A stretch of 64,000 nt of DNA, taken from NCBI RefSeq assembly GCF_037042905.1, contig NC_087251.1, positions 7,690,001 through 7,754,000 of the forward strand, in the 5' to 3' direction. Under the pieces are notes generated by a model that was not told the DNA's origin, made no database searches, and saw only the letters and a program-made list of their open reading frames with translations. The stretch's first letter is position 1. The number at the start of each line of letters is the position of its first letter. The stretch is from Lytechinus pictus (taxonomy: Eukaryota). The translations under genes and the position numbers were made by a program. Positions 18,301-60,411 of this stretch are shown in pieces.

Positions 18301-18942
18301 CTTTATTAAGACCAAGAAGATTCTATGACTGGAATTCCAACAAGCAACACATTTATTCAAGCAGCTGTTCTTTTCTAAACATGCACTAAAGAAAGTACAG
18401 CAGTATGTTGCCTTTGATGTCTGACGTTTGAAGCTGCCAGTTTCATGAGTAAATATGAAGAGCCATTTTTGGAAGTAAAAATATTGTTGTTCATGATTTT
18501 ATATGTCAGATTAGTGCCCGTACATGCCCAGTCAAGTAAATTTTAGTCATATTTTAGGAAAAATTGCATCATTTCTTTTCATGATTTTATATTTTAGATT
18601 AGTACATGACCAGTCAAGTAAATATGAGTCATAATTCAGGATATATTGCAGTTGCATCTTTTCTTTTCACATGCCCCCAAAAGTAAGTACTATGTATACT
18701 GCTCATGTATCCAGACCAAAATGCAGTGGAAAAAGTAATTATCATCACAAAGGCATATTTCCCTTTACTTATGACGTAGAGGTATGGAGTCATGCGGGAA
18801 TCTTTGTTTACCCATTTGGAAGGCAGATGGAGCAAAGTGCATGCCTGACATACTTTCTTCGTGCGGCTTTGAATGTGGTTCAAAGGGATTTTCTTTGATG
18901 TTACTGACATCTCTACTTAAACCTCCTTGTTAAGACTGATAT

Positions 18943-31230: not shown

Positions 31231-31259
<29 letters not shown>

Positions 31260-32422: not shown

Positions 32423-32559
32423 TATAATAAGTATTTATTTATTGTCCATAATTGGAAATTCTTCTTGTTTACATGCCGTGCAAAGTGATAGACAACAAAT
32501 TGTATAAATTTAACATGAACAATGGAATCTACATTTGGAACATGACAATAAACATAATA

Positions 32560-34014: not shown

Positions 34015-34084
34015 AAGAGGGAGGCAGAAAAGGAAAGAGAGAGAGAGAAATGAAAAGGGAAGGAAAGAAAGAGAAGAAAGAAAC

Positions 34085-34117
<33 letters not shown>

Positions 34118-34180
34118 AAGAAAGAAAGGAAGAAAGAAAGAAGGTAGAAAATAAAGAAAGGAAAAAGAAAGGGGAGGCTG
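34015..34180. repeat. Purine-rich (GA/GAAA)n low-complexity tract
   Basis: Seen directly. Confidence 0.9.
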
Positions 34181-34219
34181 AAAGGTATACTCAAGCCATT
34201 GAGTTTAAGAGACAGAGAG

Positions 34220-36363: not shown

Positions 36364-36973
36364 ATGGCAGCCAAATCTGGACCGAGGTTCACTACGGATG
36401 AAGAGTTAAAGTCATTGAGCTGGGAGGATGTAGTAAGACGATTACGATGGTGTGAAAATGAAAGGATGAAGTTGCTGGCAGAACAAGGTGGTACCATGAA
36501 GGATATAAAACATCAGTTAATGTTGAAATCAAATGAGATACAAGCTCTCAAGGCTGAAAACCAGAAACTTCATTCAGATAATGTGGAGTTACGTGATTTG
36601 TGTTGCTTTCTGGACGATGACCGACAGAAAGGTAGAAAAGTGTCAAATGAGTGGCAGCGTTTTGGTCAATACACAACAAATGTGATGCGCAATGGAGTAT
36701 CTACCTATCAGGACAAATTAAGAGAATTGGAGGAACGGCAAGAAAAACTATTTCAGGAGAATATTGAATTGAGAGAGCTGTGCTTTCTATTGGACCAGGA
36801 AAGAACTGGCAATCAGAGTACTCTCCTTAGCATAGGCAATGGAATTGATTTAAGAGAAAAGACAAACATGAGCAATGGACCTTCATCTATATTGAACGAT
36901 GGACATTTATCAAAGGAAGGGTCTTCCAAAATATGGGGGAATGGTGGTGACATTTCATCCTTGCAAAACAATG
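36364..36973 (+). CDS. CCDC85: Coiled-coil domain-containing protein 85 family, coding exon 1
   Basis: Acceptor ends at 36206; AAGATGG start context; motifs ELRDLCCFLDDDRQKGRKVSNEWQRFGQYT and ENIELRELCFLLD; donor G|GTAAGT at 36974 (phase 1). Confidence 0.92.
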
Positions 36974-39861
36974 GTAAGTACTTTCCATTTGTTCAAACAT
37001 CTTTGATTATCACTATCAGTTAATACATGTACAGAGATGTACATGTAAGTTATCACAAAATTTGAAAAATCTGTTTTTAACACTAATTTACATTTAATGT
37101 TTTTCAATTATGCAGGAAAATTTATTAAAGGCTAATGAACTAGACTTGCAAATATGCATTGATTGGTTTGATTTTGAAAGTGAAATAAATTGAATAGATG
37201 GTCATTTTATTTCCCATTTATGTACATGTACATACACAAGTTAATAAGATGTTCATGATCATGTAGATTTTGAAGATCTGCATATTCTCTAGTACATACA
37301 TGCCATTTGATCTGAGAACATGCTGAGTTTTGATACTAAACATCACCTTCCCTGTTGGTAGTATTTTTTTTTTGTAATTCCAAAATATTATTTCTTTTTC
37401 TGTACAAGCACTAAAATTGAATACTATATTACTGGCTTTATACAAAGTAAAATTCTTAAAATGTAATCGAAATTTGATTTCAAATAAGGATGACATTTAT
37501 ATACATCATGTACTGTAGAAATTCAAGTGGTGAGTGATATTCCTTGCAGTCTCATTATATGTAGCATACACTTGTATGCATTCTACTTGTAAAATTCAAA
37601 GTGAAACTTTAAAAGGTAACTTTTTTATTTATGCCTCTGATTTTAATGACATTTAGTTTTGCAGTATGCTTGTTTGAAAATGAAGTTGGACAGGACTTTA
37701 TTTGCAAAATGTGTACCGGTAATGTTGCTTGTTTTTAGCAATTGCTTACTGGAGGCCTATGTACATGTAGAATGAAATCAGGAGTCTTTATGTACAGTGT
37801 ATAATAATGTTATACCTGTACAAGTTTAAATTAATACAATACATACAAGGTATTGTAAATTATGTATCTATTCTTCAGTTTAAGACAGATGATTTGATGT
37901 TACACATACTAGTATGTAGGCTTTGGAGTAAAACTCGCAGTTGATGCATTTGATCAGTTTTCCAACAATCAGCAAATGAATACTACATTTTACACAAATT
38001 GAATGGTCGCCAGATGTTGATTACTAATTTGCGACATTTTATTAAAATTACTTAAAACCTATTATCTTTGATATTTGAAAACAAAGTGCAAGATAACAGA
38101 TGAAATTTGTGTTACATACCCAAACATTTTATTACTTCAAGACACAACAATGACCAGCGCCGGCGATTGTGCATCATTCAGCTTAGTTGATGTGCATTAT
38201 GTACGTACATTTAGGCGCTACATACATTGTATATTGGAATACTTGACTGAGTCAGTTTGCTCATAATGTGTGACCAATGTACATGTACATGTGTATGTAT
38301 CTGACTGGTGTTGCCACATTGACTTGTACAGGAGTAATACATGATTCATGTTTCATATTTCATTTCCTGTCAAAATCGATAAAACAGAAAAAGATCAGAA
38401 TTTTATATGAAATTAAACCATCATCTCAACTCTCAGAAAAATGATGAATACAGTACATGTAAGTCATGATCATTTGAAGCATTGATAGAACTTTACACTT
38501 CAATGATAACAGAAAGGTATGTTTTGCATTATTCCACTTTAATAATGAATTATTATCGTTCATGCATGACTGATCACAGTTTGCAACTGTTGTAGGTGAA
38601 AAATAAAGGCTATTCTTTTCTCTTTCATATGATGTATAATTCATTAGATTTTATGAAAGCCAAGTTTAGTTTTTGGCTTCCAACATAGTTCATCTACTCA
38701 TTTTATAGTGACTTGTACTTTGTACAAATAATTTCTGTACTAATGTAAATAAAAACATAATCAAGTGTAGGCTATGAACCTTTGGTGTAATCTCGTCATT
38801 GATAAATGCAAAGGGAAAATCTTCATCTTTGAAATTTGTTTCAGTACTTACATGTACGTACCATGGAGGTATTGTACATGTATGACTAGTTGATGTGTAC
38901 TCCAGAGTCCAAACAATTGTCATTTCTATATCAAGCGTGTTTGGACAATAGACTCCAGTTTTATCAGTATAAAAAAAAACAGAATGCAAAAGAATGTCAA
39001 TAAATGATGAATTCCATCAGGTATGAGGGTTTTTTTTTCCTGTCTAAAATATTTCTCTGAAATATGAAATGCTGAAAGGTTGATTAACGTACATGTACCG
39101 GTAATTGCATAATTTAAAGTCATATGTGTACATGTTTCTGCTGTCATGGGGAGTACAATGTAGATTAGTGTTTGCTTACCCCAGACTTTGTGAAAACTTA
39201 CATATGTAAGCATTAAAAAAATGGTAAAAAAGCAAACTGTCAGGCCAGGTGAAAAGTAAGATAATGGATGCTGGCCATAAATCCTGTACTCTGTGATTTA
39301 TATCCGAATAGCGTAAAATTTACCATGAAAACAGACAATAATGCACCTTTAACCAAGGAGGTATCACTAAATCTTGTACATGTACATGTACCTCCTTTAT
39401 TTAACTGTACATACATGTACAGGTATGGTGTTCATCAATTACGTGCACATGACACGTATACTTGTACATTAACATGTACATGTATGAAAATTTTGAATGA
39501 CCTGTAGCTTGCAATGTACATGTATGTTATTGTTGCACCTTGCAATGATAGCCTTTGATAAACACGAAAATTTTAACAATTTTTTTTACCCAGTACATGT
39601 ACTTAGTACAGTGTATATGTTTCTATTTGAAAAAGTTCGGCAATTGTTTACATTTAATCATACAGATTTACATACATGTACATGTACTTGTACTTGGTTC
39701 AATCCAAGAACACCTATGAACATACACTGTACAATTCATTGTAGGTATGGTTTGCCTTTTTGTTGTTGTCTCACCTGAACAAAGTTTGGCAGAGACCTAG
39801 AATGCTAGTGACTTTTCCTGTTGGTTTGTTAGTCCGTTGGTGTGTTAGAAAAATGTTGAAG

Positions 39862-41784
39862 TTTTTGTCTCACCTGCATATCAGAGTGAGAATATACATG
39901 TACATGTAGGCGCCGCTTTTCCGATGGCGATGGTGGCATCAACATCAAAATCTTAACCTAAGGTTAAGTTTTTTAAATGTCATCATAACTTAAAAAATAT
40001 ATGGACCTAGTTCATGAAACTAGGATATAATACCGGTAATCAAGTACATGTATCACTAAACATCCTGTGCGAGTTTCAGGTTGCATGATCAAGGTAAAAG
40101 GTCGCTTAAGTTCAATGAACTTTGGCCAAGTTTGGTATCACTGAACATCCTATGCGAATTTCAGGTCACATGATTAAGGTCAAGGTCATGTAAGGTCAAT
40201 GAACTTTGGCCAAGTTGGGGGAAATTGTTGAATTACCATCATAACTTTGAAAGTTTATTGGTCTAGTTCATAAAACGTGGACATAAGAGTAATCAAGTAT
40301 CACTGAACATCCTGTGCGAATTTCAGGTCACATGACCAAGGTCAAAGGTCAATGAACTATAACTTTGGAAGTTTACAGATCTGATTCATGAAACTTAGAC
40401 ATAAGAGTATTCAAGTATCACTGAACATCCTGTGCGAGTTTCAGGTCACATGATCAAGGTCAAAGGTCATTTAAGGTCAATGAACTTTGGCCAAGTTGGG
40501 GTATTTGTTGAATTACCATCATAACTTCGAAAGTTTATGGATCTGATTCATAAAACTTGGATATAAGAGTAATAAAGTATCACTGAACATCCTATGTGAA
40601 TTTCAGGTCACATGACCAAGGTCAAAGCTCAATGAACTTTGGCCATGTTGGGGGTACGTATCTGTTGAATTACCATCATAACTTTGGAAGTTTATAGATC
40701 TATCTGATTCATGAAACTAAAGGCCACCGCACACCTTAAGACCCGACTGGTCGGCGACTGGCTTGCGACTGAGTAAGGGGAGATGAATCGCAAGGTAGTC
40801 ATAAGCCTCGACACCGCACACCTTGCGATCCGATCTGCGACTCACGCATGCGCTTTTTGCTTTTTGGCATTGCAACTGAGGAAGTGCGCTTACTACTGCG
40901 TAAGCGCGTTGTTTATCATATACGCGTCGTGCAACTCTACTGTCTGATTGGCTGGAAGTTGGATTGAGCTTGCGATCCAGTCATAAGGATTCGACATGTC
41001 AAATCCTTCCGATTTTCCTTGCGACTTGTCTCTGACCGGTCTGCGACGCACAAGCTGACAAGAGCCGTGACGTCACATCTCCCCTCACTCAGTCGCAAGC
41101 CAGTCGCCGACCAGTCGGGTCGTAAGGTGTGCGGTGGCCTTTAGACATAAGAGTATTCAAGTATCACTGAACATCCTGTGCAAGTTTCAGGTCACATGAT
41201 CAAGGTCAAAGGTCATTTAAGGTCAATGAACTTTGACCATGTTGGGGGGAATTGTATGGGTCTAGTTCATAAAACTTGGACATATGTAAGAGTAATATCA
41301 AATATCACTGAACATCCTGTGCGAGTTTCAGTTCACATGACCAAGGTCAAAGGTCAATGAACTTTGGCCATGTTGGGGGGAATTGTTGAATATCCATCAT
41401 AACTCAGAAAGTGTATGGATCTAGTTCATAAAACTTGGACATACGAGTAATAAAGTATCACTGAACATCTCATGTGAGTTTCAGGTCATTTAAGGTCAAT
41501 GAACTTTGGCCATTTTCGAGGTAATTATTAGATTGCTGTCATAACTTCCAAAGTTTATAGATATAGTTTATAAAATGTGGATATAGGGGTAATCAACTAT
41601 CACTGACAAAGTCACATGATCAAGGTCAAATGTCAATCATTGTCAATGAACATAGTATTGTATTGACCATGATATGAATGGTGTTTTTTGTGAATAATTA
41701 TTTTATAGTAGTTTTCAAAGTCAGCACTCCAGCTATATTGAATCGCACAGTGCAGTTGAGACTGCCAGAGGCGCTCCACTTGTT
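39862..41784 (+). mobile_element. Helentron/HINE-like element, copy 2 (about 9 internal repeats, nested MITE)
   Basis: Same ends and repeat unit as 17315-18300. Confidence 0.85.
40721..41140. mobile_element. PIF/Harbinger-like MITE nested in a HINE repeat
   Basis: aggccaccgcacacctta ... taaggtgtgcggtggcct; flanks TAA/TTA split the host atgaaac-tta-gacataag. Confidence 0.88.
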
Positions 41785-42167
41785 TCTTTCGGGCAAGCAA
41801 GTTTTGTCATCACTTGCCGGATTTGTAGAGGCCTGTGAAAGTACATGTATTTTCACCAAAATATTCTGAAATCAAATAAACCTTGGTCAAAACCAATCAA
41901 GGACTGTTACACAATGTATGTGTACTGTTTAGTCTCAAAAGTGCTACAGTACAGTGCACCTACATATATAGTTTTTTTTTTTTTTTTTTTTTTTGCCTGT
42001 GGCTGCTTGCATCTTTCCCAGTTTATAACAATACACAATTAATGAATTTACCTGTCTGTTTCCCCTGGACTATGAAATGAACTCTAGTTATTGCCATCTA
42101 CATGTATCATCCATTTTTGTCTAAAATGCATATGTTTGTAAAACATTACTTTTTTTTCTTTCCTCAG

Positions 42168-42235
42168 ATCACATACCATATACAGAGGATAGAATTCGTT
42201 CTTTTGATGAAAAGAGGCAGTTTTCTCCACCAGAG
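42168..42235 (+). CDS. CCDC85: CCDC85 coding exon 2 (DHIPYTEDRIRSFDEKRQFSPPE)
   Basis: Long pyrimidine tract + CAG, donor GAG|GTAACG; 68 nt restores phase 1 to 0. Confidence 0.75.
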
Positions 42236-42837
42236 GTAACGAATTCTATGTCTATTCATAATTCTCCATCCATTTTTATTTGATTTTGTGAACATACATG
42301 TATACATCAAACATTAAAAATGCTCTTGTTTATAAACATACATCATACAGGCCTCTACATGTACATGTGTGTGTAGCTGCATACAGGTAGACCTACTGTA
42401 TCTTTTACCACTAATTTAATGATAAAAAGCTTTAAATGGTAATTTCCACTTATTTTACTACAGGGGGGGGGGTGTTCTATTAAAAATAACAAGAGATTCA
42501 AATCCTATTACATTGTATTTGGGACAGAGCATGTTATTGACATCATCCCCAGTATCAATTCATTAAAAATACCTATCCCAGCATCCATTAGCGTGATTGA
42601 AAACAATATGACTTGTTTACGATAAAGTCATTGGATATTATGGCCAGTGAATACTTCTTTAACCATTCATCAATGCATTTTGCCCTCTATTTAACCTTCA
42701 TACTCAACCCTGTGTATGATACCCCAAGTGACTTCTTTTCTTTCCTGTAAACTGTTCATTTCATGCAGTCATTTAGTTCTGCTTCATTTGCTCTTACATT
42801 CATTTGATCTTCCTCCGTGTTTATTTCTCTCTTCTAG

Positions 42838-42915
42838 ACAAGGAGGAATGGGTCAGAGGACAAGGTAGACGGGCCTACACCCAATCATGTCACAAGCGCT
42901 TCCAATCCAATCCAT
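42838..42915 (+). CDS. CCDC85: CCDC85 probable coding exon 3 (TRRNGSEDKVDGPTPNHVTSASNPIH)
   Basis: Strong pyrimidine tract + TAG; open phase 0-0; donor CAT|GTAAAT, with an alternative in-frame AAG|GTAGAC at 42865. Confidence 0.6.
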
Positions 42916-43269
42916 GTAAATTCATTTCTACTATATTGGGTCTTTGGATTTCAAATTCTTGCACAGTAGCATTCTAAATAATGTCTTCAGCTTTTTCATC
43001 ATTGCCTTTTGTATGAAAGGAAGTTTTTCTTTTCTTTTCAGTTGGGTTTAAAAACAAAGAGAGCAGAATACTTACATTGAATCAAGAAGCTATCCAGTGA
43101 AGTTGGCCAAAGTAAAACTATACAGATGTAGCCTCTAACAAAAAGAAGTTGTCACAGTTTGTCATATTATCAAGGAAGGATACTAAATAATGAAAGATCC
43201 ACTGCAAAGTGTTACTTTTCAGATGCTGTTACTTTCAATCTATGACTCGAAAAAGCTGAATGTTCATGT

Positions 43270-43437
43270 GGGTGATTCATAAGCTGTTTGTAAGTTAAGA
43301 GCGACTTTAAGAATGACTGGTAAATCTTGTGGTAAATATAAACGTATACAACAAAATTTTAATTTTCAATGATTTAGCGTGTAAAAAGGTTCACCAGTCA
43401 CTCTTAACTTACAAACAGCTTTATGAACCCCCACCCC
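43270..43437. mobile_element. Short hairpin MITE, same family as 63669-63840
   Basis: ttcataagctgtttgtaagttaagag is inverted as ctcttaacttacaaacagctttatgaa. Confidence 0.75.
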
Positions 43438-43622
43438 CGGAGTAATATGTAGTCCCATCCATGCATTTATGTGTCCAGTGGATATGACTATTGAATTGAG
43501 ACAATTTCTGTTCATTTTGGTGATTCCAAAAACTTTCCCCATGCATTAATTCTTGAAGTGTATCAATTTATGAATAATCAATATTTTTTCAAATCATTTC
43601 AGGCAGTGCTTTCCATTATTAA

Positions 43623-44198
43623 AGGGATGGTCCAGGCTGAAAATATTTATATCTAAAAAAATAGAGTAAAATTCACAGAGCAAAATGCTGAAAATTTCAT
43701 CGAAATCGGATAACAAATAAAAAAGTTATGGAATTCTAAGTTTCATCAATATTTTGTGAAAACAGTTATACACACATCGTCATGAATATTCTTTAGATGG
43801 GCTGATGATGTCACATCCCCACTTTCCTTTTTCTTATATTATTACATGAATTCATAAATGTTTCATGTTTTCACACGTGTAAATGATGTGTCTCCATTAT
43901 AATGAAATAAGTTAATAAATCAGTTGTCAATCTAATTGTTTTAGTACTTGGTAGAAAAATGTTGAATAAACCTTATATCATATAATAAAATACAAAAGAA
44001 CAATTGGGGATATGACATCATCAGCCCAACTAATAAATATTCATAAAGACATGCCTGTTTCACCGGAATAATGCAATTCTTTAAATTTCAATAACTTTGT
44101 TATTTGTTATCTGATTTGGATCAAATTTTCAGCATTTTGCTCTGTGAATTTTTACTCTATTTATTGAGATATAGATATTTCCAGCCTAGACCATTCTT
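43623..44198. mobile_element. Kolobok-like TTAA element, family A copy 2
   Basis: TTAA flanks; colinear with 23747-24345. Confidence 0.85.
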
Positions 44199-44586
44199 TT
44201 AAATCTTATTACTAGAAACAAAAAGTTTTTCAAAAGTTTGATTAATTAATACTCAGTAGATGCATTTAGCCTGTTTGGAAAGTTAAATATTTCTTTATTA
44301 TATATGCATATTAATTTATCTTTGTATTCCCAAAAAGTATTTGTTTTTACTTTTAAAGTAAAATCCATTCCTGTATTTAATAGCTATTATATTTTCATTA
44401 AGTATTGAAATAGATTTTTAATAAGCTTCTTCATCACATTGTATAGAATTATTCTGTATTAATGACAGAAAAAGAAAAACCGGAAATATCAGACTACTAT
44501 TAGGGAACATTAATTTAGCAAGGACCATGTACATGTATCTGTAATTTAGCTAAAGCACATTTCATCTTTTTTTGTGACATTTGCAG

Positions 44587-44676
44587 TCATCCTACTCATC
44601 CAGGAATTATGGTTCGAGCATAGAGAATGGTAACATGGCTCCTAACTCACCCAAAGCTATAGTGAATGCACTCAAG
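44587..44676 (+). CDS. CCDC85: CCDC85 coding exon 4 (SSYSSRNY...SPKAIVNALK)
   Basis: ttgcag acceptor, AAG|GTATGA donor, 90 nt. PKAIVNALK resembles the CCDC85 PEAVVHAMK motif as recalled. Confidence 0.8.
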
Positions 44677-45175
44677 GTATGATACGTTCAGTCCTCTTGA
44701 CATACAATCTGTCATCTGAGCTTCAGATGTGAAATAAAAGCTTGTCTTTGTTTGTCATTGTGATGTAGAGCTCCATGTAATGTGTCTGTCATGCCATAGG
44801 TTTGGTGCTTTGTTCTTGTGTTTTGTCTCATGATACTTTCCATTTCATACAATACAGCTGTAGTTGTCATTTGTTTGTATTCTGGCATGGAAGTTCAGTG
44901 CCGATATTTTTCAAATGCGTTATTCATTTTTAGTTGGGATTGAAAGGCAGGGATCAAAATTTTATATTTTTTGCATGAAATTTAGAATACATGCAAACTG
45001 ATTTTAGTGCAGCTGAAAACTACATGTACATGTATGTTACTGGTTGTTTGTACATGGTTTTGGCCAGGGTTTTGTTTGAATATCTACATGAAGGTTATTT
45101 GGGAGCAGAAACCAATCAGCACAATGTACATATGTATTTATAAGGTATTAATATTCCGCATTGAGGTTGCATAAA

Positions 45176-45992
45176 TAGGGATAGTGATTTTCCGTTTCAA
45201 AAAATTGCCTTTTCCGTTTCAGAAAATCTCAAATTCCGTTTCAGCATGTCAGAAAACGGAAATTCCGTTTCCCCATAGACTTTGTACACACGGAAAAGTG
45301 ACAATTCCGTTAACACATTGAATAGCAAAATCACAACACGCACACTCGCACTGGTCAAAATTTGTATCTGCTACTGTACCAACAACACAATAAAATCCGT
45401 TCTAATCGGATCTATGCGGGTGCATAAAATATTTTTACACACCCATTTTGCATGCATACATCCTCACCTTTCATATTATTAGCATTATTTCACGGTGAAA
45501 TGATATTTCATCGATAATTTTGGGGATTTTTAGACATCGTTATCATCAATCAACGGCTTTTCCCCAATCCGCCATCTTGGATTTTAAGACCACGATATCG
45601 TGCTGTTACATCTTCAAACGTAGAGGGCAGCAACACAAGACCGTGTACATGTAGTTGAACGATATGTGTGCATGTGAAGCCCAACCCGGCCGGCCGGGTA
45701 CGGGTAAGGTGCGGGGTACAAACGAGTGTGCTGATGTCGAGTGCAGTCACGATGTGTGAATTGTCATGATAGTAGCAAAGTGAGATCGTGTTTTCTGGGG
45801 TTTTTCACTTTTTTGGCCATTTAATATTCTCATTTTGCTGTGATTTTGGAGTAATTTCTGTTGCTATTCTGTGTATTTTGAGGGAAAATACGTTTTCCGT
45901 GATTTTCCGTTTGAAATGCCACTTTCCGTTTCAAAAGGCCCTTTCCGTGAATTCCGTCCGTTTTCCGCGATCGCGGAAAATCACTGTCCCTA
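45176..45992. mobile_element. hAT-like (TAGGG...CCCTA) element with 6-bp TSD
   Basis: tagggatagtgattttccg ... cggaaaatcactgtcccta; TSD CATAAA/CATAAA; subterminal TTCCGT repeats. Confidence 0.8.
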
Positions 45993-47484
45993 CATAAACC
46001 ATCTATGACAGAGAAGGTTTAAGTTCTTCATACAGTGCTCCTTTTCTCTGTGTCATTAGAAAATATGCTATTGTGTAACACTGAAGAACTCTTGATAATC
46101 TTCCATACACATTGTAGTTATATTTCAAGACAGATAAGATCAAGGCAAGTGTGCATATATTTTCATCAGCCTTTGTCGTTAGGGAGTAATCTATTTCTTT
46201 AGAATACTGATCCTATTAGTATGTACATGTAGGTCCATGCTATTAGTAATGACTTGACTCCTTACATGCCTCTAGATACAGGTACAGTGTACTTGCATTT
46301 AATTAAGATGACTCACTCCATGAATTCCTGCAATCAGTGTGATTGTACTGCATTACAAGGAGTTGTAGTCATGATCTATAGTACCTTTGCACTGGACTGT
46401 ACATTTATTGGTTAACACAAGATATCTTAACATAGTTTTCTGAATTGAAATTTGTAAATAATGATTTTCAAAGGGAAAAGAAAATTTATTTTACCTCCTT
46501 TTGTGTTGTCTTTGTCGAATAGATTCATTTATTGAACATCAATCAAATTCATCAAGCAAATAAAAATGTACCTGTAGGCCTACTTTATGTACATGGTGTA
46601 CATGTACTCATTGCCTTCATGTAGTGTGTATTGAAATTCAGCAAAGGAATGTGTTTATTTCTGTATCATGTAGTAGGACACAGCAACATTTATTTTTTCT
46701 AAAACATACTTCATTAAATAAACCCACTTATTAGTAAAGATGGCTCCTGTGACAATTTTAAGTAAATATTTGAGTAGTTTTAGCTGGAATGAATGAAACT
46801 TATTGTTTGATAAAAATATAACATTGTGTCAAAACAACTACTCTGGCCACAATATTTGTACCTGATTCCAGAATAAGGAAATAGTTGACAGCTTGTGTTT
46901 GCATTGTCAGGCCATGGATATACATTACTAGAGACAAACTCCATTCATATACAGTGTACATACATATACATGTAATTCAGTATTTTGTTTTTACATGTGT
47001 ATAGTTTTACAAGATAACTCTCCTGTTGAGTCCTACCGTTATATTTAATGGAATAAGGGCATGGTGTAATCCTGTCTTTGAATTTATTCAGGTACATTAA
47101 AAAAAAAGTTGGTCTCCCATCTCGGAGTCTCATCCCTGAAAGTTTTATCCTCTTTTATTTTTAACCTGCCTGTTATATTTCTTGTACTGTATGTTCCACG
47201 ATTTTTTATCTTGTAAATCTTTTGCAAATATTGTGATTTTTTATGATTCATCTCAATAAAAACTTCAATAATAAAAAAAGAAGGTACAGTGTATGTCATG
47301 TGAGGTATTGAAATGGCTTTCATGTACATTTATCGGTCTCATGCATGCACATGTTCATGTGTAGGCCTACTGTACATGTACATTTAATCTCATTTATACC
47401 AATGACAATTATGAAGCATACATACTCTATCTCTGAGTGATACAGAGGTTACCAAATACCAAGTGCATGTTATATTGTACATGT

Positions 47485-49791
47485 GGGCATTTTCACCACA
47501 GATGGACACAGAGGCAACAAAATCAAGTTGATATTCATGTCAAATGCTTTATGTTTTTTAATAAAACATGACCTGAAGTTTCTGAGACAAAATAATTTTC
47601 CGACTCTGGCAGCCATTTTTTATTTCAAAATGGCTGCCGAAGTATGGATACAAATTAGTGTTGAAAATAGTATATTGATACATATTTTGTTTTGACAGAT
47701 TTTTAAAGAACAGGTTTGATCATGTTGTTTTCGCCTGTGATTTAGCTTGCTATTATAACACTTTTTAAAATCCCACAGAAAGAAACACCAGTAATTCATT
47801 CATCTGATTAAAAAACATTGATGAAGTATGTGATATGGTATGTAATGTCAGTTACCGAAAACATGAACTTTTTTTTCTCATTTCCTGGAAAAGAGGATAT
47901 ATTATATGAAACTTGGTAGATTTCCTCTCTAGGTAACACCCCTCCCTTCGACACCAAAATTAAAGATAACCAATTAACAATGAAGCCATAGGGTACCATT
48001 AAATATATGTAATGTCAGTTACCGAGATGTAATGTCAGTTACCATGATAAAACGTTGGTTACCAATATTGAAATGCAAATATGTGGTCAATTTTATGGTG
48101 AAGAAATATTGTATACTTCTTTCACTTTAAAAGTCACACCAGAAGGAGCTTGCTATTGACTTTTAAAAGGTATAGTTCACAAGGAATACTATATGAAATT
48201 ATGAAGGAAGTTGCATTCCCATCGTACAAAAAAAAATTACAATGAAATTGTTTTGTACATGCAGTTACCAAGTACCTACAGTAATTGTTTGTAATTTTGT
48301 ATCAGACAATTTTTTGTTTGGTTTTCGAGGGGGGGGGGGTAGGGGGTACTTTTCCCAACCTATTGCCTAAATCTGCAATATTTTTTAAGCTTAACATTGT
48401 GATGAAGGGGATTTCCAGGGTCCCTTTTTTAGTTTCTAGGATTCTTTTGAGCATTGCCTCGTTAAAAGTAAATTCCTGGTTTTTATACCTGTTAGTAGTG
48501 TGGATGTGTGATACAATTTTGTTTTTGGTTTACAAGTATAGATGAAAAGTGAAATTTGACAGTTCTGATCAATGTTGCATGGATCTACTAAAACTGTTTT
48601 TTTTTCTAATTTACAAATAGTTCAGTTTCAGTTTAGAAGCTGGAGTTTATTTTTTGTTGACAGCTTAAAAAAGAAATTAGCAAAGAAAATGATTAAAAAA
48701 ATTATGAAGAGAATTGAAATCCAACAGATATGAACAAGCATTGCTTGCACTGACCAGAATAGAAATCAATAAAACTACATGGCTGCATGAGATTCGGGGG
48801 AGGGGTACGTGTAGCATAGGGGAGGAGACCCTTATTCATTTTGCCTTTTTTGAGGGGAGGGGGAGTTTGGAGAAGGATAAGGTTTAAAAAGTCATTATAA
48901 TACTGATGAATATATTATGGGTGTATAGTCAGAAAAATCCATGTGTACAGTCAATGCAATATTAAATTACTATAGGAAAACATGTAGCTGCTATGACCCA
49001 CCCCCCCCCCCCCCCCGAGTAAGTAAAACATACATTTCTTATCTTTTGATAATTAAAAATGTTAAGTATTATGAAACTTTTATGATTTTAAAAAGCCTTA
49101 CATATATTTAAGTACCAAGAAAATTATGCCTTTGAAAATCATATAGCACTGGTAAATGTTAATGTGTATTGTCAGTTACCGACAAGTAATGATAAAAATG
49201 TTCAAATCAAAGAAAGTAATTAAGAAAAAGAAAAGGTTTTTTCATAGAAATGTTCCTAGAAACTCGGGTATACTTCCACATCAAGCTCACTTTCATGTGA
49301 AGCCCTGCACAGAAGATACAATGCAATGATTCCACACATTTGACTTCCATGTGTTATCTCTATGGCAAATTAAGTGTAATGTCAGTTACCGTAATGTCAG
49401 TTACCAGCATGGTTGTGGAAAAATTATCATAGCCCCCAAAATACGAAAACGAATTGTTTGATATTTTGACACATCTTAACCTAGTAACGGAGGTATATTT
49501 ACATATTCAAAATATTACTCTATCTACTCAGGGACATGATATATTTCAATTTTAATGAACACCCTGAAATTGCATGTCCTTTTGCGTAATGTCAGTTACC
49601 GACACATTTTTGCTTGCTGATGCGTAAAAAAATGTGGTTACATAGGAAAGCTTAGTATCAGAGTATACAGCAAGGTTCACTTTATTAACTCTATCAAAAG
49701 CAAACTCCCATCATTTGTTGTTTTAGAGATACACACAATGAAAGGTGTGAAAACATTGTGCCGTGTAATGTCAGTTACCGTGAAAATGCCC
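47485..49791. mobile_element. Sola2-like non-autonomous element with 4-bp TSD
   Basis: gggcattttcac ... gtgaaaatgccc; TSD ATGT/ATGT; eight copies of GTAATGTCAGTTACC (one with a mismatch). Confidence 0.7.
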
Positions 49792-49950
49792 ATGTGTTGA
49801 TAACATGGTACCCTAGGAATTGATAATGTTAATGATGTTACACCTGTCTTGCAAGTCAGTGATAAGATGCTGTGTCACATGTTATAAAAGGAATTGTTTT
49901 GTATATTAAGTTTACAGTGTATGTGCATTGATTTTCCCCACATTCAGCTA

Positions 49951-51391
49951 CTGTATAAGCTGTTATTTTCGCGGTGGTTTTATTTTCGCGGATATTGCCG
50001 ATCGGCCGCGAATTTAACAATGCGCGAAAATATTGACACATTTATCAGTCAGTGCCAATGTCTCCAACAGCAAAGATTTGCTATTTGAAACTTTTTGTAT
50101 AGTGAGAAAATCGAGATATGCACCTTTATATGTAGAAAAAATAAGGTTTAGAAAGTACAGATAGTGATTCAAAAAGTTAGCTAGAATTTCACTTTTTTTT
50201 TCTCAAACAAAATCAGAGCCTAAACTATTTTCTTACATAATTTTATCGATATATATTCACTCACTGTAATATTACAATGTATTTTCCATGAAAATTTTTT
50301 AATTTATTGTCATCTGATTGACTATATACACACGTATTGGCAGCTATTTGCATACTCATTAAAGGAGAATGAAACTCTTGGAGCAAGTTAGCTTTTGTGA
50401 AAGCAGAAAAATCAAAGAATAAGATCAACAAAAGTTTGAGTAAAATAGGACTATCAATAGAAGAGTTATGAGCATTTGAATGTCAAGATCACTAATGCTA
50501 TGGAGATCCTCCCATTGGCAATGCGACCAAGATCTATGATGTCACAGATGAACAACTCTCCCCTTTTGGACACTGAAAATATACCCCAAAACATCTCTTT
50601 TTGCTCATTCTAATCATATGACAAACGATTCATCAATGATATAATGTTGTGAAACCTCTGTACTTGTCCTCCCATAAAGAGAACACCTCACCTTGTGATA
50701 GACTCTATAAAAGTGAGAATATAAGTGAAATAAGTACTAAAGTAATGAGGGAGTTGTACGTGTGTGACATCACAGATCTTGGTCGCATTGCCAATTGGAG
50801 GATCTACATGGCATTAGTGATCTCAATATTCAAATGCTCATAACTTTCTTATTATTCATTCAATCTTCCTCAAACTTTCAACAATATGTTTCTTTGATTT
50901 TTCTCTTTGATATGGATTCAGCTGGTTTCAAGGGTTTCATTCTCCTTTAATATTCATAAGTCACATGACCACAGCTTTTAGAGGGGTAAAAATCTGTTCA
51001 CAGAATTCAACATTTTTGCACTGAAACCAACTTTTTACAAAGTGAATCTTACAAAACACAACTTCAAAAGATTACTCTTACATATCAAACCGTGACATGA
51101 TGAATTTTCAGATCTAAAGGTACAAAAAAGTGAAATTTAAGCCACTTTTTCTCCACACTTTGTTACAGTTTGTAACTGTTTTTACTGGGACATATTTATG
51201 TACATAGGACACATCAGCAAAAGAATATTGAGAATCAAAGTTTTGCACATAGTTTGCACTAAGTTCGCTTCTCCGATATGCTGTGGAAGTATTTTGTACA
51301 TCTTCTGATCGCGAATTCAACAACCCGCGAAAATGTCGGGACCCCCGCGAATCGAGAAAAATTCTGTACGCGAAACTAACAGCTTGTACAG
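49951..51391. mobile_element. TA-flanked Tc/mariner-like element hosting nested insertions
   Basis: TA|ctgtataagctgttattttcgcg ... cgcgaaactaacagcttgtacag|TA. Confidence 0.7.
50363..50946. mobile_element. Kolobok-like TTAA element, family B
   Basis: TTAA|aggagaatgaaac ... gtttcattctcct|TTAA; long internal inverted repeats. Confidence 0.85.
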
Positions 51392-52310
51392 TATGATAGA
51401 GTAAAGGTACATGCACCATGTCATCCCAAATTTATATTTGACTCATAGAAAAGGAGGAATCAGAGGGAGAATGAAAAGGTCTGGCTGCTTTCATACATGT
51501 ACATGTAAGGATGAGGACAAATTAATTTTTGTTTTCAATATTGAGAAAAATGGCTCATGATTTTGATATAAAAGAGGATAAAGGTTTGATAATCCTTAGA
51601 ACTGTAAACAGTATAAATTGCATACTTGTAAGTCTTACTTATAAGAGATAAATTATTCAACATTTCTCTTCTGATTCCATGTTCACAATATCCTTCCATT
51701 TTATTGTCAGATTGCAGATTTTCAGTTCCAGTTCATTTGTGAGAGAAGTTGATGTACTGTATGTTTGCCTCAGTATTTCTGATACAAAATGGATATATGA
51801 CCAAGAAAATTGCTTGGTTTAAGAGAAAAGAATAGATCAGAAGTTAGAGATATTATGTTATTAAATGCATTGATCCGAATCAAACTGTAGTTTAGGAATA
51901 TAATTATGGTGATACAGTATTCTTTGTTGTCCATAATCAGGAGGTCAAAATGGTATTGTACACAATGTAGGTACATGTACATGTATACATGTACATGTAG
52001 GTTTTGACAGTTTGCAGTTAAACACCAAATTTATCCATTTGTATTATAGAAATACACCATTATTTATTATTGCAGCCTTTGCAGGTATATTGTCTTGTTT
52101 ACATTTTCTTCAAATCCATATTCTTAACACAAAGGGAGTTTACCCCCCCCCTCCCCCCCCCCCAAAAAAAAAAAAAACAGTGAATAAGCCAAAATAACTC
52201 ATAACTCAATATTGATAATTTTTTAACTTGAAAATGATTTCTTATACATTTGATATTGCTTGTCAAATTGTTTAGTAGGCAGATGTTAATCAATTCTACA
52301 TACATGTACA

Positions 52311-52356
<46 letters not shown>

Positions 52357-52675
52357 CATGTTAGGTAGAGTGAACCCCTCTTAAAAGCTTTTTAGGCTTG
52401 AATGGTACATGTAATATTACATGATAGTGTGAGTACATGTGAAGAGTCAGTTTAATACATGCAGGAGCCCCTTTCATGCCATATCTTTGAATTTGTTTGG
52501 ATAAAACAAATCTACCCTGATTATAATCACCACAGGCCATGTAATTGGTTTGCTTTATTAAACTGGTATAAGAACACTGCAACCCACTTTAGAAGCATAA
52601 CATTGGTATGCCAATAATTTCATGCAGATTTCATAGATAACTATATGGTGTAAACTGTCTATATGCACCATTTTC

Positions 52676-53264
52676 CCGGGGGGGGGGGGGGGGGAGCGTC
52701 AAATATGTTTAAAGGGGTGTTTTTTTTCAGTTTTGGACGTGGGCCGCGCATGCACTCGTTAAGGCTATAAAAACCACAAGGTTTTCACAAAAAAGGGTGG
52801 TTTTGAAAGACTGGTCATTGGTCAATCGCAGGATCAAATGTATTTAGGGTATTTTTTTTCTTCAAAAGCTTGTTTTTAAGACTAGCCAAACGTAACATAC
52901 ATGTATACCTTGTAATTTAAAAATGAATTATTACCTGATGAATTTTGGATGAGACTTATTTACAGTGTTTACAATGTATTCCTCTGTAGTATTTTATCCT
53001 AACTGCACTGGGGGCATGCAAACACATGACTATAGTTTTGTCTATTTAAGCTTATTTTTAGCAAGTAGACAAAACTTGTTTAGGTGTCATATTCTTGCAG
53101 CAACTTGTTAAGGGGCTAAAATGTGCAAAATGAAGCCTGTGAAAAACTTGTTTAGGGGCTTATTTTGCACGCAGAGAAAAACTTGTTTAGGGAGTGTTTT
53201 GAAATACATGTAATTTGTTCACACATGTGTACAGCAATACATTTGACTGCCCCCCCCCCCCCGG
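52676..53264. mobile_element. Unclassified MITE with CCG(n)...(n)CGG ends and 8-bp TSD
   Basis: Perfect TSD CCATTTTC; gtcaaat/atttgac subterminal IR; internal aacttgtttagg repeats. Confidence 0.75.
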
Positions 53265-54067
53265 CCATTTTCTTGGCAGGTTCATACATTTTGTAATGTT
53301 TTCTTCAGTAAAATGATATATCATTGTATTGATTGACATTAAATACTGAAATTGTAGGCAACAAAGATGTTGAGATGTTACACGGCAAAGCTTATAAACA
53401 TGACTCTTTTGAAAGTTTTGACCAAATGTGATCTCTGGTGACGTTACTTGTAGATTTCTACATGTACATGTTATGGGGGTCATCCATTTGTCTCTCTGAC
53501 ATTTATTATTGAGATAATTTAAAAACTGTTTGAATGGTCAACTTAAAACTTGTAGGGAGGACAATTTGATAGGTGTTTACATGTACACTTACATTGTAGG
53601 TACATGTATCAAGGTCATCATACACTTTACATACATGTATACGCTACAAAGGTCATGTTTATAAATAATGGTCTCTACATGTATATCATATGTCCACTGT
53701 AAAATAGAAACATAATTTCCCAAAATCATATTACAATGTACTCTACATGCCATTTCTTCTAATTATAAAAAATAATTTTCTTAGAAAGAATTTATTAGTT
53801 TAAAAATTATGTACACAAGGGACTAATAATGTCTTCTGCATGATTGTCATGGTATTTGATACCTCATATCCCAATGTTTAGCTTTGTCATGCCAATCTTC
53901 ATAATAGTAAACAGTGTTTAATCAAAGCAATTGAGGAGATGTCAAGAAAGTGCAATCAATACCCCCCCCCAAAAAAAAAAAAAGACACTTTCCATAATGT
54001 TTTACAGTACCCTCATATTTTGATTAAAAGAGAATAAACAATATATCTTCTTTTTTTTTATTGGCAG

Positions 54068-54172
54068 GTGTTGGAGGTTCATGACATGTTGGAGCGAGAA
54101 ACACCACCGAATCACCTTGAAAATGACCATATGAACACCAATGAGAAAGCTATTGTCAGGGAGATGTGTAAT
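54068..54172 (+). CDS. CCDC85: CCDC85 coding exon 5 (VLEVHDML...EKAIVREMCN)
   Basis: T-tract + GCAG acceptor, AAT|GTAAGT donor; conserved VLEVH and EKAIVREMCN. Confidence 0.9.
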
Positions 54173-54612
54173 GTAAGTCGACCAATCTAGGTTTATCCCC
54201 TATAGAACTTGACTGGCTTCTGTTACTATACATTTTGTATTACTGTTGGGTTATATTCTTTCATTGTTCAGTTTCTGCATTGCAAATGTATTTATTTCTT
54301 GTCACTTCCTAATTTTGTATCCTGTTCAATATACATGTACATGCCAAATATTCTATATGTCTTTGATATCTTCCAAAAGTATAGAGTTGAAACCAGTTGT
54401 TTAAAAGAGATATCATTTGAAATTTTGTTTTCATGAACTCTTGTCTAAAGTTTAATTGTTGTACTTCAGCCCTGGGTTTTTTTATTTAGAAAAAAAAAAT
54501 GTCTTTACTGATGAGTAATTTGATCATGTTTTTCTTCACATACCACAGAATGCTGAAGTATATGCACTCTTAGTAATGCTAATCTGATATCATTGACTAT
54601 ACTCTTTTATAG

Positions 54613-54825
54613 GTGGTGTGGCGTAAACTTGGTGACAACCCTGCCAACCCCAATGGAAACACTAATGGTAGCAGCAACAGCAGTGTCAGCAACCAATCAC
54701 AGCGTGGCCAAGCTCCACCCAGGTACAATAACAGTACTACCAATCCTACAGCTAGACCAACTGGTTACATCACTCCTCCGTACAGTAGTGGTAGTACAGG
54801 CAGTCTTGAAAGGAAAGGTATTTAA
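54613..54825 (+). CDS. CCDC85: CCDC85 terminal coding exon (VVWRKLGD...ERKGI*)
   Basis: cttttatag acceptor; conserved VVWRKLGD continues from MCN; TAA stop. Confidence 0.88.
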   Translation: MVWRKLGDNPANPNGNTNGSSNSSVSNQSQRGQAPPRYNNSTTNPTARPTGYITPPYSSGSTGSLERKGI

Positions 54826-56077
54826 TGGCAGTATCTATCAGTTCCACCCTCACAATACTGTCACCCATTTTGGTAACGGCTACAGGAAACCCTCGGGATA
54901 GGAGAGATAAGTGTGATTGTGTGGAAGGAAGATGTATTCAATTCCTCTTTCACAAATTTCAGCAGGGTACATGTAAGGCAAGCAGTTGTAAAACGGAACA
55001 TACTTTCCTAGATTATGTGTCTGTCAGCCTGCACCTTATTATAGCACTGTCATCCCTGAAATTTTGTGCTGCAATTCATTTCCATTTGGAAGAGATAAAT
55101 TTTATTTTCAATGAAAATGTATTCAGTCATCACTGCCATTTCCCTTCCGAACCACTTTGGTACCAACACAGTACTATTATCATATGACTTTAAAGTACAC
55201 CTCTTTAACGAAACAAAAGTATTCAATAAGCCACACCCCATTCCCTTTTCCTTCAGTCATATCTGGTAATGTATATTACCTCTTCCAATAAGACAGGCTA
55301 GTTAACAGATTTTCACATTTCTGAGGAGTGTTAAATCTGGTATCGAATCTCGTTAGTATTATAAGATTACATACATATATACTTCAAGATAAGGAGGAAG
55401 TGTAATGCCTGTTTTTTATGCCATGTCTTTAAAGTGATAAATGGCTTTATCAGGTTCAAAGTCTTTGCCCAATACCCAAGATAAAGATTAATTCACATCA
55501 TGTTATGCTTGATCTTGATTATGCAACAGTGATGGCTTATTGTTATTTCTATTTTTTATTGTTCTATTTTAATAGGAAAAAAAATAGTGCTGTGCATTTT
55601 GAAGTAGACAAATCATATACCATATCTGATATGCACATGTACATTTATCTTTCTATCTGAATGCATTTTTTAAAATCAAATGACATGATTGGTGGATATT
55701 GTAAAGGAGGTTGTTGATTATGAATTGAATATATGGTTTAAAATGAAAATAATGATTTTAATTCTTTATTGATGTGAAATTCCTGATTTTTTGAAAAAAA
55801 CCCACTTTGATGATTAACAATGAAATCGGTGATAAAGTTGAAATAATAGCGGCACAATCTTTCGATTTGATAATAAGAACAATACTTGCTGTTTCAAAAT
55901 CTTAAATGATGCAGGCTCAACAATTGTCTGGAGCGACACAGGATCTCACATAAAATGTTGCTTGTTATGTGTTATCCTTTCTCACCCCCCCAAAAAAAAA
56001 TTACAGTTTGTAATATACCATAAGCTCTGATTGGATGATGATTTGTTTGTATTGGAGAATCCCATGATTTCTCAGTA

Positions 56078-56551
56078 GGTGGTTTCAGACCGCCTCGAAG
56101 TTTGTCAGTTCCAGGTATTTTCTGATCGGGAAATTTACCCGATCAGAAAATACCAAGTAATATTGGCAATGTGAAAGCAAATTTCGCGTAATCTCCCCAA
56201 AAGAAAATACCCTCTAAATAGTAGGTACTTGTCAAAATTATGAAAACTTTCGTGGGGATTTTTCCAAGGTCGCAGGTATTGTGGCAATGTGAAAGCAATT
56301 TACGGGAACTTTTAGCCCAGCGTGTAGTTGGGGGCGGGTGCCGTGGGTGGCTGCTGAGCTAGTGATTTTGAATTTCGCGCCTTGCCTGCTTATCAGACCA
56401 TACTGCGCATGCTCGTAACTTCAGGAACTTATCCCGAAGGGTATTTTTCGGGGCGGTGTGAATGCAGGAATAATTAATGGTTATTTTTTAGCTTTAAAAA
56501 GTTCTCGTAATTTAACAGGGATTCTTATGATCTAGGCAGTTTGAAACCACC
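56078..56551. mobile_element. MITE with Harbinger-like ends in the CCDC85 3' region
   Basis: ggtggtttcagaccgcct ... aggcagtttgaaaccacc. Confidence 0.7.
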
Positions 56552-58050
56552 TAATAAGGTATCTTGGTAGTAAATTTTCTTGCATGTTCCATAACACTGT
56601 GTACATTATTGTACACAATGATATTCACCAGAGTCCAGATTCTTTTACACTCACTTCTCTTTGAAGAAGGCCATAATCTCCCTATTGTGAATGGCTTTAA
56701 GAACTGAATGGCCATTATTCGCCCAGGGTCACCCTTCTATTCATATCCTGTATCAACTCTTTGAAAAAGTTGTGACAGTTGGGATTGTGATCTCAACAAG
56801 AATTTATTCAGATTTGGAGGGCAAAGTAACTTTATTTGAATGGTGACCATAGTGTGGCTATCTCTCATTAGCCAAATTTGTTTTTTAAGCTACATTTGTA
56901 ACAATGAAATTGCACTTTATGACTTAAATGTTGAAAGTGCATGAAGGTCTGACAAGTGTGAAGTAGAGTGTACTTCACACAATCTTTCTCATGCATACAG
57001 TATTTCGAAATTGTTGTACAATCCTATTGAAATATATTGAAATTTATTTAATATTCTAGAAATGTCAGATTTCATTCAGTGATTACATCACATGCATCTA
57101 TTGTGAAAGCGTGAATCTTTATGAACATCAGTTTTAGATCTAAGAGAAGTCAAGCTGCACAGTGCACACCATGAATAATAAGAGAAATATCATGTAAATA
57201 GAATACTTTTTGTGTACATATGCACAATAATACTTTTTTACATCATTGAATTAAGTACAAATATATTTACATGTAGTTTTAAAAGATATGAGGAAAACCT
57301 CTTGTAATTGTAATAAAGTTGCAAATTTTTGTAATTTGTACTCTTGAAGTTAAAGCATTTTTGTAACATACATTTTCTGCATCAGATTTTTAATGTAAAT
57401 AATTTTTGTACCATTGTAAATATTTTGTAAATTATACACTGTATTTGCATACTATTTGAAAATTATCCAATGTTTCTTGTGCTGTATCTCAAGAAGCATT
57501 TATGTTTACCCTATTGTGATGTAAGACAACAATCCTTCAGACATGGAGTTGGAACTTTGCAAACAATTATGAGTATCTTAACTTTATCACATATTGTTTT
57601 TTACTTTTTAAATGGTTTCTATGAAGAAAACAGAAAACAAAATGATGATATTGATTGATATCCATTTACACTGCAGTAAGTATTCATACATGTAGTTAAA
57701 CAAAGAAGTTGGGAATGACAGGAAAATAATGAATTTTATTTATCTTTGTAATGATATTAAAAATGGGTCTAAATATGATGATAACCCAATATTTAAAGTT
57801 GTTTCTATGTACATGTAATTTTGAAAAAAAAAGTATATCGCATTCCACTTTTTCCAAAGTTTTCTTCTTTTTATACTCAACTCATATTTTTTTGTGAAAT
57901 GATTATTAGATTTTAAGGCAGATAAGTGTTGTATTGTTATATTTCCTTTAACTCATGATTAAGAATTAATTACATTGCAAGAGCATATTTAATGTATGTA
58001 AACCCTGTCCTGTGTTCAATGTTGTATTTTCAATACTCTCAAATACATTC

Positions 58051-58352
58051 TGCAATTTATAGCAAAGGATATTCAAAAATCATGACATGCCTCCATCCTC
58101 TACTTTTGCAGTAATAGTCAACTTCACATTATTAAAGCCTTCATGTGTCAAATCTATATTCCATGATTTCAACGTACATGAATACACCTGCTGCATACAT
58201 ACACTGTATGTATGCAGCAGGTGTATTCATGTACGTTGAAATCATGGAATATAGATTTGACACATGAAGGCTTTAATAATGTGAAGTTGACTATTACTGC
58301 AAAAGTAGAGGATAGAGGCATGATTTTTTAACATCCTTTGCTATAAATTGCA
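58051..58352. repeat. 302-bp palindrome with a 1-nt centre at 58204
   Basis: 58095-58203 is the exact reverse complement of 58205-58313; the outer arms are imperfect. Confidence 0.95.
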
Positions 58353-60411
58353 ATAAAAAAATCTTACACTGGATCTTTAATTGCCACAATGAGGTCTTAA
58401 AATTGATTACCAAAGATTGTCTCCATCTAATTACATGTACTGGTGTTGTTGGTAATATTTTACTGCAGGTCAGCTGCAAGTGAATTTATGTGTTTCTTTC
58501 TATTTCATTCTTCTTTGGTCATTTCCTTCTGTCTCAATCTTCCTCTCTTGATTCTCTTCATTCAATGTTGTGTGTCTACTGTACTTTGTACTGATGTGTC
58601 TAGTCTCTATGGTAGATTTGAGGTAAGATTCATTAAATGAATATCAGAAAGCAAAAGCTACCTGACGGAAAAGCAATTGAAAAAAAATATAGTATTTGGG
58701 GGTTTGTTTTTAAAACGTTTATTTCAGCATTAAAGTTCATTATTGCATTGTTGTCAGCAATCAAGAGGTATGGAAGACGAAGCACTATTGCAATTTCTAC
58801 ATGTTTCTGTGCCAATTTAGCCAAATTGTAGCAGAAACAATGCATCTGAAATAACCATGCTTGATGACTGACCTGTTTCCCAGCCAGAATCAATCATTTT
58901 GTTTTCTTAGATAAAATACAAAATCAGAAAGCTGATTTGACAATTAGTGATGAATAACAAACATACATGTACCCTATATATCTGTTTAACTCTGTCCTGG
59001 CTTTGCCATTTAACAAAATGAAACATATGAAAAGTAAATAAGTGATGTTTCTGTCTCTGTAGATTTATTTTGTTTTTTATTCATGCGAATTTGTTCCAAG
59101 AACAATCTTGTATAGCTCTACGTGTATCTGAAAACGTTTTACTGATTAGATTACTGGGATCCCTACACCATACATCGTGTGTTACGAACTTATGACTTTA
59201 ATTTTTTTTAGATGTAATGATGAAACATACCGATTGTGCATGAAATTTGAAAGCAGCATGTCTGAAATGCACCAACCTAACCACAAATTCCTTACTTTCA
59301 TGGTTAATATGAGCAAATTGTTGTTGACTGTTGATTATTAATAAAGATACATTCTCTTTTTATTGCTTTATCAAAACAGACAACAGTTGGTTGACTGTAT
59401 GAAAGTGGGATGAAGAAACAAATTTTAGTTAATTTTAGGATTTATTTTTTGAAAACATGAATACAGGAGAGTAGAAAGTTTGTAAATATGAAAAGACAAA
59501 TTAGTGTGATATGATAAGACCCATCGATTCAATAGGAATAATGTCCTGTATTCATCACATTATTGGAATGGTAAATAGATTTTGATTTTGTATTCTCTTG
59601 TATTTTATCACTTCAGAGCAAATACCTCAACATATATTAATCTGCTTGCTTTACTACAATTTGCAAATGTATGTATTCAACAATATAAAGCACATTACTG
59701 GTTTTCTACTTAGTATTTCTTAATTTTTATGTAAGTATTTATGAGGATTAATTTCTCTTTCTATTTATTTGCTCATGATGGATATTAAGTTTGTGCCCAA
59801 AACTATTGAAAAAAAGTTTAATTCTTGTGTTTTTCTAGTAATTGTTTGGTTGGTGCATGGAGCTATTTATTAGCTCCATGGTTGGTGTATTCATGATTTT
59901 TAAACATCAATACGCATCATTATGAGAACATCGCTGTAATCTGTCCTCTATCAAGTGACGTCAAGGTTGGGTGAAACGGTCTATTGTAAATTAAACTCAC
60001 ATTTTAATATTTATTTTGATATTGCAAATTTAAAAAAAACCATGTTGCATACAATTTGTCTCATATACATGTATTTCAAAGAAACCTGTTCTAAAGATTA
60101 TCACTATGTTTAGATCTGATTCTGAGCCTGTATGCACACCAATGAAATAAATCTGACCAAAAATATCAACATAACATGATGGGGAAGAATGGATTGGTTA
60201 GCAACCTTTTTTTTTTGTTCTTTTGCCTCACTCTCTATACCACAAATTAGCATTGTATTTAGTGTTAAGGGGTATAGAAAAAAGTTATCTTTCCTTTACT
60301 CTTGCATTAAAACAAATTCTAAAGCAAATTTGTTTATTTTGCATAACTGTATCAAGAGGCTTTATATATAGAACACATTGATTATATTGTCTGTTTCCAA
60401 CTATAATCTAT

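Follow-up and report, generated by a model that had tools for sequence, protein, structure and literature searches.

Short TA-bounded inserts in an intronic repeat copy of Lytechinus pictus as probable excision scars of a Tc1/mariner-type element

Introduction

In genome sequence, excisions of cut-and-paste transposons mostly escape recognition. With a uniform scar, polarised against repeat consensuses, such past events would become countable and mappable, and the spectrum of its variants would show how the germ line joins non-matching 3' overhangs. In a stretch of 64,000 nucleotides of Lytechinus pictus (NC_087251.1, positions 7,690,001 to 7,754,000; in the following the window, with position 1 as its first letter) two copies of one repeat are present, one of which lies in an intron and carries short words such as CATGTA at TA sites. 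The locus raises the question whether these words were gained as insertions in the intronic copy, by which process they arose, and whether the position within a gene contributed to their number.

Materials and Methods

Four public runs were aligned to positions 36950-42450 at 82% likeness, reads from other repeat copies piling up on this interval. Run X1 is identical to 36950-38970 and may stem from the same individual or strain, and is hence not independent; contigs of organism B are gapped over 36950-37710, with 53 gap letters in one record. The target context of each site was computed after the insert had been removed and the site collapsed to a single TA.

Results

Gene setting and repeat copies

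The gene that harbours copy 2 (Table 1) was assigned to the CCDC85 family by Pfam PF10226 (E=1.9e-56); its five exons, with GT-AG joints, give an open frame of 361 aa, and RNA depth covers the bins with exons 1 and 2. Copy 2 is located in intron 1 of this frame, which bears out the intronic placement given in the initial annotation. Copy 1 lies ~4 kb beyond the last coding exon, called by eye, of the glycosyltransferase-49 gene. Both belong to one repeat with units of ~163 bases, in which a 13-base inverted repeat (17320-17332 and 18266-18278), a CGG run and the 163-base units are all present and which, going by features that we assume to be diagnostic, we tentatively take to be a HINE or DINE-1-like non-autonomous Helentron. 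A metagenome scan with the repeat head gave 0 matches, and one with the unit motif gave four loci that match over 27-35 bases only and are not the repeat family. The element nested within copy 2 has its terminal repeat in common with an element at 9471-9888. The CpG observed/expected ratio is 0.36 in copy 2 versus 0.63 in copy 1, and the CGG run of copy 2 looks decayed; the CpG loss is as expected for a methylated gene body.

Table 1: Features of the window discussed in the text.
Feature	Positions	Strand	Remarks
Glycosyltransferase-49 gene	8192-13062		PF13896; two more exons near 10850-10985 and 12866-13062 by eye
Repeat copy 1	17315..18304	+	no scar-like insert; 3' of glycosyltransferase-49 gene
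CCDC85-family gene	36364..54826	+	coding exons 36364-36973, 42168-42235, 44587-44676, 54068-54172, 54613-stop
Field of TACATGTA and TACA-N-TGTA words	36974..58600		introns and 3' region of CCDC85 gene, patchy
Repeat copy 2	39862..41789	+	~163-base tandem units, subterminal inverted repeat, CGG-type microsatellite; read depth from other copies in thousands
TA + CATGTA twice	39895..39908		+12 versus copy 1; absent from 615 family reads
TACCGGTA	40031..40038		net +3 versus family; ambiguous origin
TA + CATGTA, i.e. TACATGTA	40045..40052		+6; one mismatch off tandem duplication of CAAGTA
TA + CGTA (TACGTA)	40655..40660		one mismatch off duplication of GGTA
Nested inverted-repeat element within copy 2	40719..41141		69-base arms, 97% complementary
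TA + TGTA (TATGTA)	41283..41288		+4; canonical Tc1/Tc3 scar; missing from the list of the initial annotation

Inserts of copy 2 and their polarity

Alignment of copy 2 with copy 1 and sister units yielded eight inserts of 2 to 12 bases, and the strings quoted in the initial annotation were all recovered at their positions by exact string search and alignment. Half of the inserts (39895, 40045, 40655 and 41283) are cleanly bounded by TA on both sides. The doubled CATGTA stretch spans 39888-39914, the matching copy-1 head lying at 17341, and TACGTA is +4 against units with five G and +3 against units with six. The description of the inserts as palindromes caught at TA sites holds for 39895, 40045 and 40655, but not throughout: TATGTA at 41283 is no palindrome, and at 40031 TACCGGTA cannot be read as a simple insertion into an existing TA, because the first unit of the family reads GGTTA or GGGTA there. 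The latter word would require either a scar and a loss of three bases or an inverted copy of GGTA, and is ambiguous. Three further inserts are without TA bounds, namely an ATCT duplication near 40698, AT near 41297 and four letters near 41664. Recurrence at one site, likewise claimed before, would be illustrated by the doubled CATGTA at 39895, to which either two visits or one visit followed by slippage may have led. Flank-templated opening of a hairpin was ruled out at 39895 and 40045, where the emptied sites hold no TACA or TGTA.

Whether the family sequence already carries the motifs was decided by reads from other copies. Both these reads and the sister units are without the inserts at 39895, 40045, 40655 and 41283, and the motifs are therefore insertions gained in copy 2, as had been proposed. 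At 39907, 615 RNA reads (agreement 0.9) enter with the head known from copy 1 and without CATGTA, and at 40021, 1562 RNA reads and 135 contigs exit with a first unit that holds neither TACCGGTA nor CATGTA. At 40654, 138 of 288 RNA reads omit four letters, as do 7, 44 and 44 contigs in the three contig runs; in organism B much of the rest of the depth consists of two-letter omissions at 40650, 40653 and 40656. At 41287 the absence of four letters accounts for depths of 25422/25975 and 25000/26876 in the two runs of organism B, while in organism A the omission was seen in 0/69 RNA reads and in no contig. The TATGTA insert is absent from the other aligned units as well.

Scar words across the window

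The word TACATGTA was observed 69 times in the window against 3.7 expected, at 61 sites of which eight are doublets; CATG between other inverted dinucleotide pairs occurs at most 10 times. In the gene region the +6 form (54 versus 2 expected) is accompanied by TACA-N-TGTA (16 versus 1.6), the central base of which, counted over the window, is G in 7, A in 5, T in 4 and C in 3 cases, and by words with two or three central bases (8 and 9, versus 1.7 each), part of which consist of shorter words in a chain. The +5 forms amount to 16 versus 7.3, the +4 forms are barely enriched (50 versus 37.7, P=0.03), and TACGTA is not enriched (3 versus 2.0). All enriched four-letter spacers are palindromes (CATG 69, GGCC 7, CCGG 6, CTAG 4), the window-wide figures being 7 versus 0.3 for TAGGCCTA, 6 versus 0.4 for TACCGGTA and 4 versus 0.8 for TACTAGTA. 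In the assembled genome a few percent of the TA sites in introns carry the +6 form.

Neighbours of TACATGTA with one mismatch number 40 against 28.4 expected; this excess of ~12, set against ~52 excess exact words, suggests a decay of ~3% per base. Since the repeat units are spread by 8-9%, the words would be the younger of the two. Counts per kb are overdispersed within the gene (P=2e-5), the densest patch of the window, with 11 words in 39001-40000, adjoins the start of copy 2, and coding exons hold 0 sites per 59 TA. An origin by CpG deamination from a CGCG precursor was excluded by the counts of TACGCGTA (0), TACACGTA (0), TACGTGTA (2) and TATGCATA (4) versus 69 for TACATGTA. Different spacers are chained on shared TA at 47362-47380 (GGCC, CTG, CATG) and 39090-39103 (CATG, CCGG); as a class, adjoining different rarer spacers were not above chance (5/122 versus 78/3600, P=0.2).

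Several other elements were recognised in the window. TA-flanked inverted-repeat elements with CG, CTG and GG ends are present at 25421-25531, 49949-51393 (with a further inverted-repeat element nested at 50358-50951) and 56076-56553, and are possible sources of the words TACGTA, TACTGTA/TACTAGTA and TAGGCCTA. A 2.3-kb element at 47480-49797 has terminal repeats of ~17 bases, seven copies of a 15-base subterminal motif and no scar in 201 TA; its ends differ as if the CpG of a CACG terminus had decayed each way. At 58051-58352 a 300-base palindrome, with 118-base arms that are 99% complementary, is centred on TACA-C-TGTA; it could have formed by head-to-head joining of two left flanks from an excision site, or else represent a palindromic repeat family. 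On the minus strand, broken pieces of a non-LTR retroelement (RVT_1, zf-RVT) are found at 29906-31270, and a tRNA-Arg-like call at 26859-26930 may be the head of a SINE.

Target context of the emptied sites

After collapse to a single TA, T at +3 (read as A at -3 on the other side) was found on 75/122 sides against 1219/3602 (34%) of the background, and A-3 and T+3 occur together at 23/61 sites versus 210/1801 (P=3e-7). The bias is retained when 41 possibly scar-derived sides are dropped (38/81 versus 2323/9070, i.e. 26%, P=5e-5), and on the same 81 sides A at +1 is depleted (10/81 versus 3078/9070). Sites of TACA-N-TGTA have the same +3 T bias (22/38); TAGGCCTA, TACCGGTA and TACTAGTA, present in small numbers, have none. 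These features of the emptied sites are also contained in the target consensus of Tc1, CAYATATRTG (PMC9635669), and ZB and Sleeping Beauty are described as preferring ATATATAT (PMC7913693). Among the lines of evidence for a transposase, the target signature is the chief one that does not depend on the letters of the insert itself. The excision-footprint mechanism offered in the initial annotation gains independent support from the target context. Within the 64-kb window no TA-flanked element with CA...TG ends was found. No filled allele was seen among the indel rows (12 of 183) and loose ends (24 of 5338) listed, all of them in or at the edge of the repeat.

Intronic versus intergenic DNA

The motifs had been said to accumulate in the intronic copy and not in copy 1, the pair serving as an internal control. 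Four scar-like sites were counted in copy 2 and none in copy 1, but the difference has P=0.14 by TA count, or P=0.05 at most with all six conceivable events counted, and two copies do not establish the intronic position as the cause. Of the inserts in copy 2, three fall within its first 170 bases, close to where the words are densest in the window. Divergence of units from the majority is 53/643 in copy 1 and 97/1071 in copy 2, one unit of which is misaligned, with no clear age gap. The copies are about equally diverged, as such a control requires, but the control is weaker than claimed.

On a larger scale, 46 sites per 1900 TA were counted in the gene together with its 3' region, compared with 7 per 1491 in 17301-36300 (P=2e-6). 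Eight inverted-repeat inserts within the gene, chosen from the elements detected in the window and assumed to be younger, hold 5 sites per 511 TA versus 55 per 1219 in the rest of the intron and 3' DNA (P=8e-5); their difference from the intergenic 7/1491 is not significant (P=0.2). Their poverty in scars is as expected for accumulation over time. Since these inserts, though in the gene, are about as scar-poor as intergenic DNA, the contrast between gene and intergenic DNA could largely reflect, and be confounded by, DNA age. In the glycosyltransferase gene, introns and 3' region are equally CpG-poor, yet they hold only 7 sites per 736 TA, and therefore CpG depletion alone is no predictor of scar density.

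Discussion

Excision scars as the preferred reading

The inserts are best read as excision scars of a cut-and-paste element of Tc1/mariner type with CA...TG ends, of which both two-base overhangs were kept, and we assign this reading a probability of roughly 0.65. An element, presumed from the polarity of the inserts and their target context, would enter a TA, preferably with A at -3 and T at +3, and duplicate it. A later excision would leave the terminal CA as a two-base 3' overhang on each flank, as it does in the chemistry of Tc1 and Tc3. End joining in the germ line, a pathway suggested by the observed products, would mostly retain both overhangs and give TA-CA-TG-TA; a base added between them would give TACA-N-TGTA, and bases lost would give TATGTA or TACGTA. 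Each TA of a scar is followed inwards by T at +3, or preceded by A at -3, and might therefore be a favoured target again; doublets would then represent a second visit or slippage of the six-base unit. The number of scars would rise as the DNA ages, and the scars would be locally patchy. TATGTA and TACGTA are on record as scars of Sleeping Beauty and Tc3 and as products of elements with CAG ends (10.1101/659086), so that all four clean inserts of copy 2 can derive from one family.

Other explanations

It could also be assumed that the donor ended in CATG and was cut with a four-base stagger, the overhangs pairing and ligating into one uniform product. Staggered excision of this sort is known from Minos. 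The dominance of a single product and the palindromic nature of all enriched four-letter spacers would fit, as would the left end of the 2.3-kb element at 47480-49797, which starts TA|CATG; its right end, however, reads CATGTG and then TT instead of CATG and then TA. Self-pairing overhangs would exclude a central base, but a tenfold enrichment was observed for TACA-N-TGTA, with each of the four letters at N. Two ends placed side by side account for this better than CATG ends that pair with each other. We consider a CATG-ended donor improbable.

Replication slippage would dispense with a transposon altogether, with short tandem duplications and point mutations seeding a CATGTA microsatellite. 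The inserts at 40045 and 40655 are each one mismatch off a perfect duplication, perfect duplications do exist in copy 2 (near 40698 and 41297), 8/61 sites are doublets, and a flank within one mismatch of CATG, also predicted by slippage, occurs at 28/61 sites versus 279/1801 background TA. However, no such precursor exists for the first insert at 39895, and at 33/61 sites both flanks are at least two mismatches away from CATG; the +3 T bias persists on sides unlike CATG (30/47 versus 498/1588). In simulations, tandem duplication of six letters with one substitution yielded TACATGTA in 17/33840 cases only and perfect duplication in 0/1880, while duplications of four letters gave one of three scar words in 70/1884; at 3% per event, four scar-like sites among eight small inserts would have a probability of ~5e-5, a post hoc figure. 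Slippage also offers no reason for convergence on a single word. It accounts for some cases, not for the 33/61 sites without a CATG-like flank, and as the general origin of the words it has little probability.

Even less probable is a host or domesticated enzyme that cuts TA and adds bases without a full cycle of insertion and excision. It would need no donor, in line with the window, where none is present, and the product is more uniform than the published scars of Tc1 and Sleeping Beauty, as far as these are described in the cited sources; the target bias and the minor products, on the other hand, match known transposases. That TACATGTA is a protein-binding motif favoured in gene bodies by selection or fixation bias is the most remote of these explanations, for although the word has a fivefold higher density in the gene with its 3' region, is negatively correlated with CpG observed/expected (rho -0.50 over 32 bins) and has few one-mismatch neighbours, it arrives as a whole six-base insertion even within a repeat copy, is rare in elements inserted in the same introns and varies in its central spacers, and selection would filter inserts rather than create them.

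Genic position and significance

Within the reading as excision scars, a true preference of the scars for gene bodies is possible. The more far-reaching proposal, in which a Tc1-type family preferring CpG-depleted gene bodies, together with germ-line end joining that keeps both overhangs, put a uniform six-base scar on ~4 to 5% of old intronic TA, is doubtful. If this proposal is true, excision would contribute substantially to intron sequence and could be read from it directly, and scar decay combined with nesting in dated repeats would provide a clock for past transposon traffic. In motif searches of these introns, TACATGTA will turn up as a false regulatory motif.

Comparison with known footprint systems

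Footprints of this kind, including natural scars from both ends and the re-use of one TA, are already known (PMC1925063). The polarity of the inserts as derived from family reads is new here, and so are the target signature and the confounding by age. In the literature consulted, where figures or supplements (e.g. for ZB, PMC7913693) could show a +6 scar, a TACATGTA scar that dominates genome-wide was not found described.

The rice genome-wide survey resembles the present analysis in that excisions were read from comparative sequence (PMC4423477). Most of its 94 excisions, in the portion of the survey cited, had deletions or filler (PMC4423477), whereas here one precise product prevails, in word counts that recognise precise scars only and to which messy scars are invisible. 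In the beta-amylase intron of Triticeae, natural scars of Stowaway also hold pieces of both element ends enclosed by two TA, one TA having been re-used; unlike here, where dozens of identical scars and no filled allele were seen, a single locus with mixed scars and filled alleles was described there (PMC1925063). With Sleeping Beauty the words TACGTA, TATGTA, TACAGTA and TACTGTA are shared, the last two mildly enriched (16 versus 7.3), while the eight footprints listed for it include neither TACATGTA nor TACA-N-TGTA (10.1101/659086).

With the Tc1/Tc3 system of C. elegans the present sites have in common the TA target, the CA/TG left behind, the bias for A-3 and T+3 and the product TATGTA, found at 41283 (10.1101/2022.08.01.502254, PMC9635669). 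In that organism 78% of the Tc1 scars reported are +4 forms derived from one end (10.1101/2022.08.01.502254), whereas here the +6 form derived from both ends dominates. A canonical one-end product of +4 or +5 would have been expected to dominate the gene region, and it is the +6 form that does so; on the preferred reading, the inserts are therefore to be regarded as a variant and not as a plain member of the Tc1/mariner footprints.
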